A stretch of 64,000 nt of DNA from Anaerolineales bacterium (GTDB lineage: Bacteria; Chloroflexota; Anaerolineae; Anaerolineales; E44-bin32): positions 121,189 through 185,188 of the forward strand of contig DAOUDW010000035.1 in the NCBI GenBank assembly GCA_034430895.1, read 5' to 3'. Each line of letters starts with the position of its first letter. Position 1 is the stretch's first letter. Under the pieces are notes generated by a model. It was not told the origin of the DNA. It did no database searches and saw only the letters and a program-made list of their open reading frames with translations. Below, piece by piece: positions 55,841-61,682 of this stretch. The translations under genes and the position numbers were made by a program.

Positions 55841-56986
55841 ATGCAAGCAGAGATCATCTCTATCGGCACTGAATTGCTACTGGGCGAAATCGTCGACACC
55901 AACACGCGCCTCATTGCACGAGCGCTGCGCGAAATTGGCGTGAATGTTTTCCGCACATCCACTGTCGGGGATAACGCCGATCGAATTGCCGAGGCCATTC
56001 GCGAGAGCACTCAGCGTGCGCAAATCGTGATCACAACAGGCGGCCTGGGTCCAACGATCGATGATGCCACACGAGAAGGCATTGCGTTGGCGCTCGAGCG
56101 AGTGCTCGAATTCCGTCCTGAACTTTGGCGGCAGATCCAGGACCGTTTCGCCCGCTTTGGGCGAAAACCTACAAAGAACAATCGCCGTCAAGCGCACCTG
56201 CCACGCGGTGCAACGGCGATCGAGAATCCCATCGGTACGGCCCCAGGATTCTATTTCGAAAGCGCTACATCCGTCATCTTCGCCCTTCAAGGCGTTCCAG
56301 CAGAGATGGAGTACGCGGTGGAAAATGCTGTGATTCCATATCTGCGCGAAAAATTTAACTTGAAGAGTGTCATCAAGACACGCATTATTCGCACTTCAGG
56401 CCTGGGCGAATCCGCCGTGGATACACGCATCGAGGACCTGGAGAAACTCAACAACCCTACTGTGGGTTTGGCGGCACACCCCGGATGTGTTGATGTTCGC
56501 ATCACGGCGAAGGCGAAAACTATCGATCAGGCGGATGAGTTGATCTCTCGTTTCGAATCCACGATCCGTCAACGCCTGGGCGAGCATGTTTATGGCGTAG
56601 ACGACCACACTTTGGAAGCCGCCACATTGGCCCGTGTCGCAGCCTACCGTTTGCGCCTGGTTGTCGTTGAATGTGGCACGAACGGAGCACTCACCGCCGC
56701 GCTGGCTCCAATGGAAGATCCATTTGTGTGCGGTCAGATCTTGACTCACGATGAAGATCAAGAGCAATTCTCCGCCGCATTGAGGCTTCTGCAGCAATCC
56801 CAAATGGCACGACTTGGAATGGGTGTATATTTGACATCGGAAGGTGAGCGCCACATCTGCAAGATTTTCATCAACTCACCGGTCGGAAATGAGTTGCTGA
56901 CACGTACCTACGGCGGTCCTCCATCGTATGCAGCACAATGGGCAGCGAATGTGGCCCTCGATCGTTTGCGCCGCCATCTTGCTTGA
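55841..56986 (+). CDS. cinA: CinA-like competence/damage-inducible protein (MoCF domain; degenerate C-terminal domain)
   Basis: 'AEIISIGTELLLGEIVDTNT' and 'ITTGGLGPTIDD'. In the C-terminal region, 'VVECGTNGALTAAL' stands where PncC has 'AESCTGG'. Confidence 0.8.
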   Translation: MQAEIISIGTELLLGEIVDTNTRLIARALREIGVNVFRTSTVGDNADRIAEAIRESTQRAQIVITTGGLGPTIDDATREGIALALERVLEFRPELWRQIQDRFARFGRKPTKNNRRQAHLPRGATAIENPIGTAPGFYFESATSVIFALQGVPAEMEYAVENAVIPYLREKFNLKSVIKTRIIRTSGLGESAVDTRIEDLEKLNNPTVGLAAHPGCVDVRITAKAKTIDQADELISRFESTIRQRLGEHVYGVDDHTLEAATLARVAAYRLRLVVVECGTNGALTAALAPMEDPFVCGQILTHDEDQEQFSAALRLLQQSQMARLGMGVYLTSEGERHICKIFINSPVGNELLTRTYGGPPSYAAQWAANVALDRLRRHLA

Positions 56987-57011
56987 CAACCCGATCAGCG
57001 ACTTCTATAAT
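56983..57011 (+). promoter_or_regulatory. Consensus sigma-70 promoter for tRNA-Gly
   Basis: A perfect TTGACA (56983-56988), a 17-nt spacer, then a perfect TATAAT (57006-57011). The -35 element overlaps the cinA stop codon. The tRNA starts 14 nt downstream. Confidence 0.7.
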
Positions 57012-57024
57012 CCGCCACGAAGAT

Positions 57025-57096
57025 GCGGGTGTCGCCAAGTGGTAAGGCAGTAGCTTCCCAAGCTACCATTCGTGGGTTCGAATCCCATCACCCGCT
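57025..57096 (+). tRNA. tRNA-Gly (anticodon CCC)
   Basis: Hand-folded 72-nt cloverleaf with acceptor GCGGGTG/CACCCGC, anticodon loop TTCCCAA, T-arm GTGGG-TTCGAAT-CCCAT and discriminator T. It is followed by CTTTTTT. Confidence 0.93.
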
Positions 57097-57169
57097 CTTT
57101 TTTATCATCGGAGCACTTGTCTGACAATTGATTATTGACAAGCATCAAAGCTATGATAGATTAATAGCT

Positions 57170-57356
57170 ATATAATTCCGCTATTTTCGTATATATGTAA
57201 TAGCTGTGGTAAAAATATCTTTGTCGTTTGGATGTCCTGCACCTTGAATTGGCGTCCGGACGTAATCCAAAAAGTATCCGGTGTCCAGGGCGGTGCGCGA
57301 CAGGATCGTGAAGGCTCGCGTGGGACACCTCCCAGCCGGGAGGTGTTTGTTGTTTA
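57170..57356 (+). ncRNA. Candidate cis-regulatory leader or small RNA upstream of the liv operon
   Basis: The promoter-like motif is TTGACA (57135-57140) followed by TGATAGATT (57154-57162). Three overlapping helices follow: 57256-57260:57277-57281, then 57280-57286:57323-57329, then the terminator 57325-57333:57338-57346 with a TTGTTGTTT tail. Confidence 0.35.
57325..57355 (+). terminator. Intrinsic terminator ending the leader/sRNA candidate
   Basis: ACACCTCCC-AGCC-GGGAGGTGT (9 bp, perfect) followed by TTGTTGTTT. Confidence 0.6.
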
Positions 57357-57373
57357 CTGGCAAGGGAATTTTC

Positions 57374-57402
57374 TTGACAATCCGTTTCAATCCAATTTTA
57401 AT
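57374..57402 (+). promoter_or_regulatory. Candidate promoter proximal to the liv SBP gene
   Basis: TTGACA (57374-57379), a 17-nt spacer, then TTTAAT (57397-57402). Confidence 0.35.
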
Positions 57403-57544
57403 TTCCTGAATTATTTGCATACGTTTTATACCAATCGAAAGGAGGAATTCGCGCCACAGATCAAACATTTCCACTTACGAAAACATCCCCGAAAACGACT
57501 TTGGCTAATCAAAGTCAATTTGAATGTAGGAGGAGAGGATAACC

Positions 57545-58807
57545 ATGAAACGTCATTCGCCACTATTCGTAATTCTCGTTGCCAGCTTGCTTCTCGTAAG
57601 TTGCTCAGGCGGTAAATGTGAAGTTGATCCCGATGCTGTGCTCACCATGGGCATGACTGCCAGCGAACTTGCTGATGCTGGTTACGTCGTCGTCGGCCCT
57701 GGTTGCACCATCCGCATTGGCCAATCCGTCGGTCTGACTGGGCCGCTCCCTGACCCAGGTCTCGATATTCAACAAGCCGCCGAACTCGCAGTTGATGACC
57801 TCAATGCCGCAGGCGGCTTCGAAGGTCACGATTGGGAACTCATAACTGAAGACGGCGCCTGCGACGGTGATGCCGGAACGGTAGTCGGAAACAAATTCGC
57901 TGCCGATCCCTCGATCGTAGCCATTCAGGGCGGCATGTGCACGGGTGAGACTCTGGCATTGATCCCGATCTTCACCGAAGCGCGCATCCCCTTCGTTACA
58001 GCCAGTTCCACCAACCCAGCCGTCACGAGCGAGGAATGTGACGTCTGTAACCGCGTTGTGCTTAGCGACAAACTGCAAGCCGACGTTGATGCCGACTACA
58101 TCACAAATGTGCTAAATGTCACTTCAGTCGCGATCATGCACGACAACTCGGATTATGGGCTTGGGATCGCCGAACTCTTCCAAACTGCGTTTGAGTTGCT
58201 CGGTGGCACGGTCACTGATTTCCAGGGTGCTCAGGTTGGTGACACTGATTTCCGTTCGGTTCTAGGCCAGATTGCACCGAGTAATCCTGAATTGATTTTC
58301 TTCGGTGGCTACTCCACGGAAGCCGGTTTGATCACCATTCAAATGGACGAAGTAGAAGGTCTGCAGGATACGATCTTCTTCAGCGACGATGGCACATACA
58401 CGCAACAGTATCTGGACACAGCGGGGGCGGCCGCCGAAGGTGCTTATGCCAGCTTCGTGGCCGGCGATGAGACCGAAGATGCCAACGCTGAATTCGATGC
58501 TAAATATCTCGAAAAATACGGCGTCGCTCCGGATTCTCTTGGGCCGTTCCACGCTCAGACATACGACGCAATCAATCTTCTCGCAGAGGCGATTAAAAGC
58601 GTCGCCATGGCCGATGATGCAGGTGAAGGTTACTTGATCATCGAGCGCGAGGCGGTTATTACTGCTGTTCGCACCACAACTGGGCTGCAAGGTCTGGCTG
58701 GTGTGATGAACTGTAATGCGATCGGCGATTGTGGTGCCGGTGGTATCCAGGTCTTCCAGGTTCAGGATGGCGCCTGGGTTCAGGTATCGGGCTTTGGCCT
58801 CGAGTAA
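57545..58807 (+). CDS. Branched-chain amino acid ABC transporter substrate-binding lipoprotein (LivK/LivJ type)
   Basis: A lipobox in 'VASLLLVSCSGG' and a type I periplasmic-binding fold pattern ('IRIGQSVGLTGP', 'AIQGGMCTGE'). The strong SD AGGAGGAGAGG lies upstream. Confidence 0.85.
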   Translation: MKRHSPLFVILVASLLLVSCSGGKCEVDPDAVLTMGMTASELADAGYVVVGPGCTIRIGQSVGLTGPLPDPGLDIQQAAELAVDDLNAAGGFEGHDWELITEDGACDGDAGTVVGNKFAADPSIVAIQGGMCTGETLALIPIFTEARIPFVTASSTNPAVTSEECDVCNRVVLSDKLQADVDADYITNVLNVTSVAIMHDNSDYGLGIAELFQTAFELLGGTVTDFQGAQVGDTDFRSVLGQIAPSNPELIFFGGYSTEAGLITIQMDEVEGLQDTIFFSDDGTYTQQYLDTAGAAAEGAYASFVAGDETEDANAEFDAKYLEKYGVAPDSLGPFHAQTYDAINLLAEAIKSVAMADDAGEGYLIIEREAVITAVRTTTGLQGLAGVMNCNAIGDCGAGGIQVFQVQDGAWVQVSGFGLE

Positions 58808-60029: not shown

Positions 60030-61682
60030 ATGAACTTCAAAGAAAGCATACGCCTCGGTTTAATCACATCCGGAATACTCATCTTCCTGGACTTGATCGG
60101 TTTGCCACTTACATCCGGCAGCGCTATCGTATTTATTTTTACAATCGTCGTCGGATTACTCTCCTTCTTAATGCTGCGCAACCGAAACGGAGAGCGGAGC
60201 ACTCTTCTCAACGCTTCGATCAGTGGATCGATAATTGGGGCGATTAGCAGCATCGGCATAGTTACAATCACGACAATATTCGCCAGATTGCAGGCAGACG
60301 GCATTCGCGTCAATAAAGTGTTTGCACAGATTCTCCCCGAACACACCGGCGCCCTCACGGGTCTGACCAAGGTGGAAGTTTTATCCGGCGCCAGTATCTG
60401 GCCTGGTATATTGAAACTTTGCATCCTGTTTATTGTGGCCGGAACCATTGGCGGGGGATTGACCGCTTTACAGAGTGACAAGACCAGTTCAAGAACAAAG
60501 CAATTTTCTTCTTCTCCATATGGCCGCTATGCACTTTTAGTCCTGCCCTTTCTGCTCTTTGGTTCCTTCATGCTCTTAAAAGTCGAGGGGGTACAAATCG
60601 GCGGCGAAGATGAGAACACACTTGGGTTATTGCTTGTATTTCTTTTCATCAGCACAGCATTGTTTGCATTTCGCGGTGCCAGGCCGGGCAATGAACGAAA
60701 ATTAATCTCGATCGCGATCGTTTTTCTTATACTGGTATTGCCTCAACTTACTGATCTCTTTCAAAATGCCGTTCTCAGTGCGGTGATAATTTTCGTTGTT
60801 ATGGGGCTGGGGCTTAACATCGTCGTGGGGTATGCGGGTTTACTCGATCTCGGCTACGTCGCCTTTTTTGGCATCGGCGCTTATACTTTCGGACTGCTCT
60901 CTGCCCCCGAATCATTCGTCCTCGTAAACCTGCCTGCTTTTGGTGGCGTCACTTTTTGGAGTGGTCTGCCGATCGCTATCCTTGCTGGAGTAATTACAGG
61001 CGTCCTGCTTGGCATTCCGGTGTTGCGAATGCGCGGCGACTACCTGGCGATCGTTACCTTGGGTTTTGGCGAAATTATTCGTCTGCTGTTACTCAACCTG
61101 CGCGATTTCACCGGAGGTCCTGGCGGTGTACTCAACATTCCTGCCCCCATTGTATTCGGAGTAGACCTGGGAAATCCAAAGGGAATATTCTATCTAGGCA
61201 TGCTTTTTAGCGGTATCGTAGCTTTTATAACAATCCGCTTGCGTGATTCTCGCTTAGGGAGATCGTGGATCGCCTTACGCGAAGATGAAGACGTTGCCCG
61301 AGCGATGGGCATCAACCTGGTAGCAATCAAGCTTCTTGCTTTCGCCACGGGCGCTGCATTTGCCGCCGCTGCGGGAGCGTTGTATGCATCCAGGCAGGTT
61401 AACATATTTCCGGATAATTTCACGCTTCTCGTGTCCATCGACGTGCTTTCGCTGATTATCATCGGCGGACTGGGCAGCATCGAGGGAGTCGTTCTCGGCT
61501 CGATCGCGCTCATCGGTCTTCCGGAAATTTTACGCAGTGTAAATGAGTACCGCATCCTAACCTTCGGTGCGCTATTGGTAGTGATGATGATCCTGCGTCC
61601 AGAAGGATTGTTGCCGTCTGCAAGACGGCAACGCGAGTTGCGCGGTGAAGCCATAGCTGAATCCGGAATAGCCTCCGAATGA
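60030..61682 (+). CDS. livM: Branched-chain amino acid ABC transporter permease (LivM type) with a long N-terminal membrane extension
   Basis: The core motifs are 'NIVVGYAGLLDLGYVAFFGIGAY' and 'MRGDYLAIVTLGFGEI'. At 550 aa it has about 200 extra N-terminal residues with several TM helices. Confidence 0.87.
   Translation: MNFKESIRLGLITSGILIFLDLIGLPLTSGSAIVFIFTIVVGLLSFLMLRNRNGERSTLLNASISGSIIGAISSIGIVTITTIFARLQADGIRVNKVFAQILPEHTGALTGLTKVEVLSGASIWPGILKLCILFIVAGTIGGGLTALQSDKTSSRTKQFSSSPYGRYALLVLPFLLFGSFMLLKVEGVQIGGEDENTLGLLLVFLFISTALFAFRGARPGNERKLISIAIVFLILVLPQLTDLFQNAVLSAVIIFVVMGLGLNIVVGYAGLLDLGYVAFFGIGAYTFGLLSAPESFVLVNLPAFGGVTFWSGLPIAILAGVITGVLLGIPVLRMRGDYLAIVTLGFGEIIRLLLLNLRDFTGGPGGVLNIPAPIVFGVDLGNPKGIFYLGMLFSGIVAFITIRLRDSRLGRSWIALREDEDVARAMGINLVAIKLLAFATGAAFAAAAGALYASRQVNIFPDNFTLLVSIDVLSLIIIGGLGSIEGVVLGSIALIGLPEILRSVNEYRILTFGALLVVMMILRPEGLLPSARRQRELRGEAIAESGIASE

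Follow-up and report, generated by a model that had tools for sequence, protein, structure and literature searches.

A conserved promoter-proximal leader RNA with alternative folds upstream of a liv-like transporter operon in uncultured Anaerolineales: a possible transcription attenuator

The window analyzed here, a 64-kb stretch (64,000 nucleotides) of an Anaerolineales genome, contains an operon for an amino-acid-type ABC transporter preceded by a tRNA-Gly gene. Its first gene is livK-like and encodes a Peripla_BP_6 substrate-binding protein, followed by LivH-, LivM-, and LivG-like genes. The best NCBIfam matches of these genes are LivK, LivH, LivM, and LivG, with every score under the curated cut-offs. 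Between the tRNA gene and the operon lies a leader RNA of about 190 bases with its own promoter and terminator hairpin. The features of the locus are as follows.

57025-57097: tRNA-Gly(CCC), upstream of the element
57135-57162, plus strand: promoter P1, with -35 TTGACA (57135-40), a 16-nt spacer, TG (57154-55), and -10 TAGATT (57157-62)
57165-57170, plus strand: palindromic TAGCTA at the predicted transcription start
57171-57276, plus strand: variable 5' domain with the region 1 strands GCACC (57239-43), UUGGCG (57249-54), and CCGGA (57256-60)
57277-57296, plus strand: region 2, UCCGGUGUCCAGGGCGGUGC, containing the antiterminator 5' strand GGUGUCC (57280-86)
57287-57299: AGGGCGGTGCGCG
57295-57321, plus strand: small hairpin P2, GCGCGA (57295-300) with UCGCGU (57316-21), enclosing a variable 15-nt loop
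57323-57356, plus strand: terminator-like hairpin and tail, consisting of region 3 GGACACCUCCC (57323-33), loop AGCC, region 4 GGGAGGUGUUU (57338-48), and tail GUUGUUUA
57374-57402, plus strand: second promoter-like motif, TTGACA (57374-79), a 17-nt spacer, and TTTAAT (57397-402)
57437-57457, plus strand: downstream leader box GAAAGGAGGA ... CGCCAC, Shine-Dalgarno-like and followed by no start codon; context, outside the element
57497-57516, plus strand: hairpin directly preceding the ribosome-binding site, with arms GACUUUG and CAAAGUC around the loop GCUAAU; context
57545-58807, plus strand: livK-like gene, first of the downstream operon

A preceding sequence-only reading had placed a promoter, three overlapping pairings, a terminator, a second promoter-like motif, and AGGGCGGTGCGCG in this interval, and every one of these features was recovered at its coordinates. 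The promoter, described there as a good extended -10 type with TTGACA at 57135, scored 10 of 12 in the promoter scan with its TG extension and proved to be conserved across lineages. Transcription would start near 57168-57170. The perfect 9-bp terminator, whose 5' arm was said to be able to pair upstream instead, was also confirmed. It joins 57325-33 to 57338-46, extends to 11 bp when two G-U pairs are included (57323-57348), and is followed by the tail UUGUUGUUUA. In the scan it registers as a terminator-like site of 11 pairs, with a tail rich in U, about 155 nt past the predicted start.

The upstream pairings define alternative conformers. In helix 2:3, GGUGUCC (57280-86) pairs with GGACACC (57323-29) over 7 bp, and in helix 1:2, CCGGA (57256-60) pairs with UCCGG (57277-81). 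Minimum-free-energy folds pair the region 1 strands with 57277-57296. The two competing window conformers are nearly isoenergetic, at -56.7 kcal/mol for the terminator and -54.7 kcal/mol for the antiterminator. When folding of the nascent RNA is modeled, a transcript ending at 57322 adopts 1:2 and one ending at 57333 adopts the antiterminator, which thus precedes the terminator. The energy gained when region 3 pairs upstream was compared with that of dinucleotide shuffles. The gain is modest in the window (z = -2.1; 4% of shuffles) and reaches z = -2.9 in the closest relative (L004) and -3.0 in a short copy (L028). For the single sequence alone, evidence beyond chance is weak: folding z-scores of -1.0 and -1.2 are not significant, and the scan found one terminator-like site against 1.0 expected.

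The comparative evidence is of a different kind. The element is real rather than a chance arrangement, because the whole unit recurs in 17 distinct copies from about seven lineages of uncultured Anaerolineales, here termed groups A-G. Each of the 17 immediately precedes the same liv-like ABC transporter gene in the same orientation, with one copy per locus. In the 64-kb window, a covariance model of the core detects a single copy, at 86.7 bits (E = 1.5e-18); the runner-up scores 11.6 bits. Some close orthologous loci lack the element (for example, L039 and L044), and at orthologous liv loci of this kind the covariance model of the core detects no copy. A scan of 241 million metagenome records with a 26-base core pattern, which fits groups A-D only, returned 6 loci, each upstream of livK; groups E, F, and G were recovered through the neighboring gene. 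Viral contigs searched for the hairpin plus GTGG gave 21 matches, all with covariance-model scores of at most 17.7 bits that cover the hairpin part only. Such hairpins therefore exist elsewhere, and in the viral contigs the element itself does not. The natural variants resemble a set of designed mutants, with one copy that lacks the 5' domain and copies with or without a leader ORF, a U tail, or a second promoter.

Conservation is greatest in the promoter, the start-site TAGCTA, a small CRCG/CGYG hairpin, and an invariant CACCUCC(C)/(G)GGAGGUG hairpin. In P1, the TTGACA, the TG, and the T-A-n-n-n-T of the -10 element are constant in all copies and the remaining positions vary. These invariant positions match the pattern expected of a sigma-70 promoter, and P1 thus behaves like a true one. 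TAGCTA is present in every copy except L037, which reads TATCTA. In the sequences of groups A, B, and G, it can be read as one half of an inverted repeat whose other half lies in the promoter spacer (AGCTA-N12-TAGCT).

The terminator-like hairpin is 96.5% paired over the 17 copies. Seven stem pairs are invariant, the loop is variable, and the pair flanking the invariant seven covaries: 11 copies have A-U there and 6 have G-C. The U tails of groups D and G are poor. Such total invariance of the stem is unusual for a plain terminator. P2, which the sequence-only reading had not described, can form its CRCG/CGYG pairing in all copies, with 98.5% of cells paired in the shared register and one pair seen as G-U, A-U, and G-C; its 6-bp register is restricted to groups A-C.

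The upstream helices are less uniform. The GGUGUCC/GGACACC pairing proposed earlier is present in the window and modestly exceeds shuffles there, but outside the window's own groups A-C the 7-bp helix does not occur. The alternative 2:3 pairing of groups D-G has only 4-5 bp and in groups D, F, and G is no better than shuffles. A single antiterminator model common to all lineages was tried and fails, with column 20-58 broken in 7 of the 17 copies. The sequences of groups A-C are too alike to yield covariation evidence. Helix 1:2 likewise exists in the window as proposed, yet it is replaced by other segments from lineage to lineage and is missing in L028. That short copy keeps the promoter and the core and has lost the whole 5' domain, including region 1; elsewhere, the 5' domain differs between lineages. 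In region 2, GGU and GG.G are invariant in all 17 copies, and every long copy carries its own lineage-specific upstream complement to it instead of the window's helix. In group D, one 1:2 pair is changed on both sides, from A-U in L020 and L037 to G-C in the four other copies. The 1:2 duplex energies are not above those of shuffles (z from -2.2 to +0.6), since a segment as rich in G as region 2 can also pair with random sequence. What speaks for 1:2 is accordingly this compensatory pair together with the lineage-specific complements. Of the helices, only the terminator hairpin and P2 are kept in all lineages.

Leader ORFs follow the lineages as well. The absence of a leader peptide, claimed previously, is true of the window copy. 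Its sole ATG (57232) lacks a Shine-Dalgarno sequence and its frame continues through the terminator, leaving no intact leader ORF. Groups A and B likewise show no codon periodicity on the plus strand (variable columns 9/10/9). Sister lineages nonetheless carry a short ORF with a coding signature. In groups D-G, it spans 17-31 residues, with a peptide that is not conserved between all groups. In group D, the three codon positions hold 14, 2, and 11 variable columns, compared with 7/8/7 and 9/10/9 in the flanks. The ORFs of groups D and E give a gap-free alignment with 7 shared codons whose differences are purely synonymous in this frame, against 1-2 in the other two frames. This sequence signature is what a translated ORF in groups D and E would be expected to leave. 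The stop codons fall from about 11 nt 5' of region 2 to within it. No single amino acid clearly dominates the candidate peptides. Their frames contain scattered Ile, Leu, and Val codons and, in groups D-G, one to three Trp codons with no run of identical codons; in group D, residues of the Ile/Leu/Val class are kept at several positions. Two other ORFs were rejected. A minus-strand frame of 97 amino acids (57181-57474), a gene call in the public assembly, is not conserved and differs in length and frame per lineage. For a short ORF after the hairpin, the alignments of groups A and B show neither a conserved peptide nor a conserved frame.

A second promoter after the terminator had also been suggested. 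The motif is present at 57374-57402, but its TTTAAT lacks the A at the second -10 position that the scan requires, and it was not flagged. Both hexamers are changed in L004, the closest relative, and the motif is altered in L028 too. Groups B and E keep it (TTGACA-N17/18-TTTAAT), and in groups D and G there is no promoter-like site between the hairpin and livK, so P1 must drive the operon through the hairpin there. A promoter function for this motif appears doubtful. Its alignment with the transcribed leader of orthologs lacking the element is too ambiguous to use. Further downstream, 23 of 27 orthologous loci, with and without the element, carry an [AG]AAGGAG box 80-146 nt before the ATG. At the site of the hairpin at 57497-57516, alignments show differing complements in other lineages (ACUCGG/CCGAGU, CCCAG/CUGGG, AGACC/GGUCU, and UCCGGC/GCCGGA).

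The element had been called unclassified, and the catalogs agree. Rfam 15 was scanned with the whole window at gathering thresholds, with 56950-57600 at E <= 10, and with six relatives at E <= 1. These scans matched tRNA only, with no riboswitch family and nothing else meaningful; a serC leader match at E = 2.2 covers the terminator alone, and the remaining low matches are noise. Literature searches turned up no account of the element, and a search of full texts returned no paper on leader-peptide attenuation in Chloroflexi.

Taken together, these observations lead us to favor, tentatively and with a probability somewhat short of even, a cis-acting transcription attenuator of the liv-like operon, situated in its promoter-proximal leader. 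RNA polymerase would start at P1 near 57169 and copy the variable 5' domain, followed by the conserved 3' module of region 2, P2, region 3, and region 4. Pairing of regions 3 and 4 would create the GC-rich hairpin with its U-rich tail and stop transcription about 190 nt past the start, ahead of the operon. Pairing of region 3 with the GGUGUCC of region 2 would prevent that hairpin, and polymerase would continue into livK. The region 1 strands could in turn sequester region 2. The sequence elements, their conservation and fixed placement before livK, the balanced energies, and the lack of a catalogued family are observed; that termination is conditional, and what would set the choice, is inferred. 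The best guess for the input signal is translation of the short leader ORF, with a ribosome reporting amino-acid supply. The ORF of sister lineages overlaps region 1 and stops beside or inside region 2. In the window copy, which has no intact ORF, folding kinetics or another factor may operate the switch, or the hairpin may act as a fixed partial terminator.

Several lines of evidence argue for the attenuator: the 17 copies share one site and orientation before livK, P1 is conserved, the hairpin includes a compensatory pair, the 2:3 helix of groups A-C lies above shuffles, and the conformer energies are balanced. The lineage-specific complements of region 2, with the 1:2 pair changed on both sides in group D, and the leader ORF of relatives count in its favor too. 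For action in cis in particular, groups D and G combine poor U tails with no promoter-like site after the hairpin, and the second motif is weak. Counted against it are the missing ORF of the window copy, leader peptides with no clear enrichment in a single amino acid, the weak 2:3 pairing in groups D, F, and G, a 1:2 pairing not above shuffles, the loss of region 1 in L028, and the invariant hairpin stem, for which the model does not account.

Known leader-peptide attenuators, in which a ribosome mediates the control of amino-acid operons, include trpL, leuL, ilvL, and thrL of Escherichia coli. Like these, the element is a promoter-proximal leader of an amino-acid-related operon, in which the 5' arm of the terminator can also pair upstream (3:4 versus 2:3) and a further upstream strand can hold region 2 (1:2). 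Its relatives also share the short ORF over region 1 with a stop at or near region 2. The differences lie in the operon, which encodes a transporter and not a biosynthetic pathway, in the absence of a run of identical regulatory codons, and in a window copy that has no intact ORF. In addition, the invariant stem mimics a Shine-Dalgarno/anti-Shine-Dalgarno duplex, strong 2:3 pairing occurs in some lineages only, and the host belongs to an uncultured Chloroflexota lineage.

An unlikely alternative, which nonetheless deserves weight, is a stand-alone small RNA of about 188 nt that runs from P1 to the terminator and is either trans-acting or merely stable, with liv transcribed from 57374-57402. 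As in terminator-ended intergenic small RNAs, the unit has its own promoter (here conserved), a length within 90-190 nt, and a GC-rich hairpin with a U-rich tail. The window and groups B and E place TTGACA-N17/18-TTTAAT after the hairpin, L028 retains only the promoter and core, and the patchy occurrence among close relatives (absent from L039 and L044) recalls accessory genes. The same second motif weakens this reading, however, since it lacks the A at the second -10 position, goes undetected in the scan, and differs in L004, the closest relative. Groups D and G, with their poor U tails, show neither it nor any other promoter-like site before livK. In those two lineages, the element is the sole promoter-bearing unit 5' of the operon. 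Moreover, all copies hold a constant position and orientation before livK, the window contains a single copy, and no conserved single-stranded seed is visible, most of the conserved bases lying within helices.

A riboswitch-like leader that binds a metabolite or protein is clearly unlikely. Here, GGUGUCC, AGGGCGGU, P2, a G, and GGACACC would form the core, and an amino acid or regulatory protein bound to it would stabilize the antiterminator. As in small aptamers, groups A-C show almost no variation in the closing helix, the 8-nt junction, or the P2 stem, and the P2 loop is variable; the core stands without the 5' domain in L028, and the two conformers are close in energy. This core is not kept in all lineages, however, as groups D-G have A/GGA in place of AGGGCGGU/G and a closing helix of only 4-5 bp. 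Groups A-C are too similar to supply covariation evidence, neither the window nor the relatives match an Rfam riboswitch, and the element is very rare, with 6 loci in 241 million metagenome records by a pattern that fits groups A-D only. The livK RNA motif in Rfam, a candidate cis-regulatory RNA upstream of livK genes, resembles the element in preceding a livK-type substrate-binding gene, but the scans of the window and six relatives matched tRNA only.

A further proposal gives the stem invariance a function. The CACCUCC(C)/(G)GGAGGUG arms look like an anti-Shine-Dalgarno/Shine-Dalgarno pair, as they copy the anti-Shine-Dalgarno sequence of 16S rRNA (CACCUCC) and a full Shine-Dalgarno sequence (GGAGGUG). 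The invariance of the stem hints at a sequence-specific role outside the attenuator model. If the element were a ribosome switch, capture of region 3 by upstream sequence would expose a perfect ribosome-binding site, and a bound 30S subunit would lock the read-through state. In groups A, B, C, and F, a UUG or AUG follows GGAGGUG after 6 nt. A leader switch of a new class, responding in this manner to ribosome availability, or a new small amino-acid aptamer in the core of groups A-C, is regarded as a long shot. The mechanism probably falls within a well-known class.

It is improbable that the element is a small-protein gene or its remnant, that is, the mRNA of the 17-31 residue peptide of groups D-G with its own terminator, whose frame has been lost in the window lineage. 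The 14/2/11 codon-position periodicity of group D, the synonymous-only differences common to the group D and E ORFs, and the presence of a promoter and an end hairpin agree with such a gene. Nevertheless, the best-conserved parts are the promoter and the 3' core, which groups A, B, and C retain although they lack the ORF. The peptide, with lengths from 17 to 31 residues, is not conserved across all groups, and the ORF overlaps structured RNA with compensatory changes.

An even smaller probability is assigned to a DNA-level operator, an 8-4-8 palindrome (CACCTCCC-N4-GGGAGGTG) recognized by a dimeric transcription factor instead of an RNA hairpin. Both arms are invariant around four varying central bases, a pattern typical of operators and unusual for terminators, and the seven inner pairs show no G-U intermediates. 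Against this reading, the T-rich run is one-sided and downstream on the P1 strand, as fits a directional terminator. The palindrome also keeps a constant 160-170 nt from the conserved promoter, its adjoining outer pair switches from A-T to G-C, and the upstream G[CU]GGRR is conserved on one side only.

A T-box riboswitch sensing uncharged tRNA is effectively refuted, and the earlier rejection of this class is upheld. The likeness extends to an amino-acid-related operon downstream, terminator/antiterminator logic, and a G-rich stretch, AGGGCGGUGCGCG (in group D, UGGUGGUGUAACGCG), superficially similar to the T-box sequence AGGGUGGNACCGCG, but the Rfam T-box model matches neither the window at E <= 10 nor six relatives at E <= 1. 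A Stem I, a specifier domain, and any conserved long stem are absent, the 5' domain being variable and missing in L028. The window reads CGGU where UGGN is needed, and the U/C position of this would-be motif varies in group D in step with an upstream A/G. The look-alike bases therefore belong to a helix with the upstream strand and not to a free bulge.

Since Chloroflexota, the Anaerolineales among them, are seldom grown in culture, their gene regulation has hardly been studied. The clade bearing the element is narrow and the class of mechanism is probably well known, so the general impact of the finding is moderate. For the organisms themselves, a leader that is conserved ahead of an amino-acid-type ABC transporter and whose alternative folds are balanced suggests how these bacteria might tune nutrient uptake. 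The invariant Shine-Dalgarno/anti-Shine-Dalgarno hairpin could, in turn, point to a ribosome-linked mechanism.

The element lies in the gap between cinA and a LivK-like gene, and every coordinate assigned to it by a sequence-only reading, including the three alternative pairings, proved correct when the sequence was read again. The features of this gap are listed below.

Features of the element-bearing gap (window positions)
55841-56986: cinA
56983-57011: perfect promoter, TTGACA-17-TATAAT, overlapping the end of cinA and serving tRNA-Gly(CCC)
57025-57097: tRNA-Gly(CCC)
57135 (TTGACA), 57154-55 (TG), 57157-62 (TAGATT): P1, second promoter in order, followed by an AT-rich stretch
57256-60 with 57277-81: 1:2 pairing, CCGGA with UCCGG
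57280-86 with 57323-29: 2:3 pairing (antiterminator), GGUGUCC with GGACACC
57323-57348: terminator-like hairpin (3:4) at the end of a G+C-rich block, with a perfect 9-bp stem (57325-33 with 57338-46) and tail UUGUUGUUUA
57374: third TTGACA, then 17 nt and TTTAAT
57181-57474, minus strand: 97-aa ORF spanning the element
57545: ATG of the LivK-like gene

The three TTGACA motifs fall within 400 nt on one strand. The minus-strand ORF, called as a 95-aa gene without a Pfam match in the public assembly, is most likely a spurious gene call; the open stretch ranges from 27 to 115 residues in relatives, in differing frames. By itself, the window sequence is statistically unremarkable, with folding z-scores of about -1 and one terminator-like site, the number given by shuffles.

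Orthologous loci were gathered from the LivK-like protein (genome-collection scan and look-ups of the encoding contigs), by a DNA pattern scan of metagenomes, and with nhmmer over the loci already gathered. Alignment upstream of orthologous livK genes, a check proposed in the sequence-only reading, establishes the element as real and conserved. It occurs in 17 distinct copies sorted into lineages A-G, all 17 directly 5' of the same LivK-like gene, on its strand. It is absent from some close orthologs (loci L039 and L044) and wherever the orthologous protein is about 69% identical or less. Searched with a covariance model of the core, the 64-kb window yields one copy (86.7 bits; next match, 11.6) and the orthologous loci without the element yield none. 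The proposed comparison with Rfam (release 15), riboswitch and leader classes included, returned no matching family in the window or its relatives. The upstream tRNA-Gly is common to groups A, B, and C; in groups D (L037), E, and G, a gene for a cNMP-binding domain takes its place.

Lineages of the element (L numbers are loci), strands of the 1:2 pairing, and leader peptides
Group A: window, L004; region 1 GCACC..UUGGCG.CCGGA, region 2 UCCGGUG.CCAG..GGUGC
Group B: L005, L006, L007, L041 (plus L026, core identical to L006); region 1 ACUGCC..UGGCACC, region 2 GGUG.CCA.GGCGGU
Group C: L028
Group D: L020, L021, L027, L029, L030, L037; region 1 CCRCC-AA-CCGGA, region 2 UCCGG-UUAU-GGYGG; peptide MTSANRILAITIHWRLYYWLRLH
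Group E: L031, L045; region 1 GUCUCAACUUUGUACUGG, region 2 CCGGUUGCAAGGGUGAGAC; peptide MIKSNRSLVSTLYWCYWYTLRP
Group F: L036; region 1 AAACGGUUUC, region 2 GAAACCGUUU; peptide MTQKRFHTKITRWWYAIWMADEKPF
Group G: L042; peptide MILRRITDPVLYWCRMT

At P1, TTGACA, the TG extension, and a -10 of the form T-A-n-n-n-T are kept in every lineage while the remaining positions drift; this pattern is characteristic of a working sigma-70-type promoter. A palindromic TAGCTA marks the inferred transcription start. An inverted repeat, AGCTA-N12-TAGCT (57150-57170), covers the P1 spacer and start region and overlaps the -10; groups A, B, and G retain it and group E does so in part, and a P1 repressor could use it as its operator.

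The 5' domain (about 100 nt) diverges strongly among groups and is wholly missing in group C, where TAGCTATAC joins UUUCCGGUGUCC directly. The 3' module (alignment A4) has the invariant motifs GGU, GG.G, C.CG, and G.G, and hairpin arms that read CACCUCC(C)/(G)GGAGGUG. The terminator-like hairpin is 96.5% paired over the 17 copies, with seven pairs that never vary; the pair outside these shows a compensatory change, with A-U in 11 copies against G-C in 6. Its loop reads AGCC, UGCC, UGCU, AACC, AACU, or GAAC. The small hairpin P2 (57295-300 with 57316-21 in the window) is possible in all copies (98.5% paired, shared 4-bp register), and one of its pairs is seen as G-U, A-U, and G-C. In four group D copies (L020, L029, L030, L037), the terminator-like hairpin can be extended by about 8 pairs, formed between AAGCGUGG 5' of the hairpin and CUA.CGUUU 3' of it; the extension takes the 3' strand of P2 and leaves no U tail, and the result resembles a long, stable stem more than an intrinsic terminator.

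The alternative pairings differ among lineages. The 1:2 strands vary, and the duplex energy is not better than that of shuffles. One pair in group D covaries: L020 and L037 have A-U, and the remaining four copies have G-C. This substitution also accounts for the U or C seen in the T-box look-alike. Only groups A, B, and C have the 2:3 helix GGUGUCC/GGACACC unchanged; groups D-G have just GGUG(U) against (R)CACC, and no single antiterminator model fits all lineages. Compared with dinucleotide shuffles of the upstream RNA, the energy gained when region 3 pairs upstream has z = -2.1 in the window, -2.9 in L004, -2.4 in L006, and -3.0 in L028, and is about 0 in most of groups D and F. The energy of the full window RNA is -56.7 kcal/mol in the terminator fold and -54.7 when the antiterminator is imposed; region 1 folds on region 2 in RNA ending at 57322, and RNA ending at 57333 switches to 2:3. 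Given these near-equal energies and this switch, the three-way logic proposed from the sequence is therefore present, and finely balanced, in the window's lineage; its 2:3 helix is confined to groups A-C.

For the input of the switch, we tentatively favor translation-dependent attenuation. A short ORF starting 32-45 nt past the inferred transcription start is carried by groups D, E, F, and G, and in groups D and E two sequence patterns suggest that it is translated. Variable columns in the group D ORF number 14, 2, and 11 by codon position (flanks, 7/8/7 and 9/10/9), and residues of the Ile/Leu/Val/Met/Phe class are retained through first-position changes. No gap is needed to align the ORFs of groups D and E, which have 7 synonymous-only codons in frame versus one or two in other frames. 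Overlap of the ORF with region 1 is seen in groups D and F, and the stop falls between about 11 nt before region 2 and inside it (e.g., GGUG-UAA, GGG-UGA), a geometry that in groups D-G matches classical ribosome-mediated attenuation. Group B has a possible 18-codon ORF with a UUG start 5-6 nt past GGAG or AAGGA (L006, L007), containing I-L-V-W and stopping 13 nt before GGUGUCC; variable columns in groups A and B show no codon periodicity (9/10/9). In the window copy, neither a canonical start 5' of the I-F-V-V-W codons nor a stop ahead of region 2 is present, so the earlier statement that it has no Leu/Ile/Val-rich leader peptide stands. Translation-dependent attenuation may have decayed or been modified in the window's lineage. 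The main alternative is a core in groups A-C that binds a ligand or a protein, because in these groups both helices and junction AGGGCGGU stay fixed and the P2 loop varies.

Whether the element is a cis leader or a separate sRNA turns on the promoter proposed at 57374, which several findings weaken. Its -10, TTTAAT, lacks an A at the second position; the motif scan demands one and left the site unflagged. Both hexamers differ in the nearest relative, L004, and L028 lacks a good -10. From the hairpin to livK, groups D and G are without any plus-strand promoter-like site, and their U tails are poor (CCUAGCGUUUACCC and UUCGGGGUUUAUUGG); P1 must therefore be the operon promoter there, with the element as part of the 5' leader. 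Orthologs without the element have promoters 175-205 nt 5' of the ATG (TTGACC, 17 nt, TAGAAT and similar), which P1 resembles. On our reading, the element was inserted between the promoter and the leader; any terminator within it would then have to be bypassed conditionally. We tentatively regard it as a cis-acting transcription attenuator, a reading with somewhat under even chances; a stand-alone sRNA, or a dual role, is unlikely for the window.

The hairpin arms comprise an anti-Shine-Dalgarno and a full Shine-Dalgarno sequence, and show zero variation, without even a G-U wobble, among lineages about 25% divergent in LivK protein. A UUG or AUG lies 6 nt past GGAGG of the 3' arm in groups A, B, C, and F; the ensuing peptides and frames are not conserved and differ between close relatives. 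In the window, this UUG opens a 19-codon frame (57342-57409). The invariance of the arms could come from two constraints acting on region 3, from a role linked to the ribosome, or from an operator at the DNA level.

Further downstream, a Shine-Dalgarno-like box (GAAAGGAGGA, then CGCCAC; 57437-57457) lies about 100 nt 5' of the livK start with no start codon after it. Of 27 orthologous loci, 23 have an [AG]AAGGAG box 80-146 nt 5' of the ATG, loci without the element among them; a ribosome standby site and a structural element are both possibilities. A hairpin, GACUUUG-GCUAAU-CAAAGUC (57497-57516), sits about 12 nt 5' of the ribosome-binding site, and other lineages carry different complements there (ACUCGG/CCGAGU, CCCAG/CUGGG, AGACC/GGUCU, UCCGGC/GCCGGA; judged by eye), which suggests a conserved structure in the liv leader. 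The best NCBIfam matches of the operon are LivK, LivH, LivM, and LivG, all under curated cut-offs, so 'liv operon' is a family-level label only. The LivM-like permease (60030-61682; 550 aa) matches the 418-position LivM profile only from around residue 221, with roughly 200 extra residues ahead of the match; the permease is equally long in relatives.

A T-box, already rejected in the sequence-only reading, is dismissed here too, with no model match, no Stem I, and the look-alike bases sitting in a helix. The closest working likeness is to a classical transcription attenuator. The distribution is narrow and the mechanism probably conventional. The element represents a clean, conserved leader that is not catalogued and that has natural structural variants; regulation in this phylum is little known.
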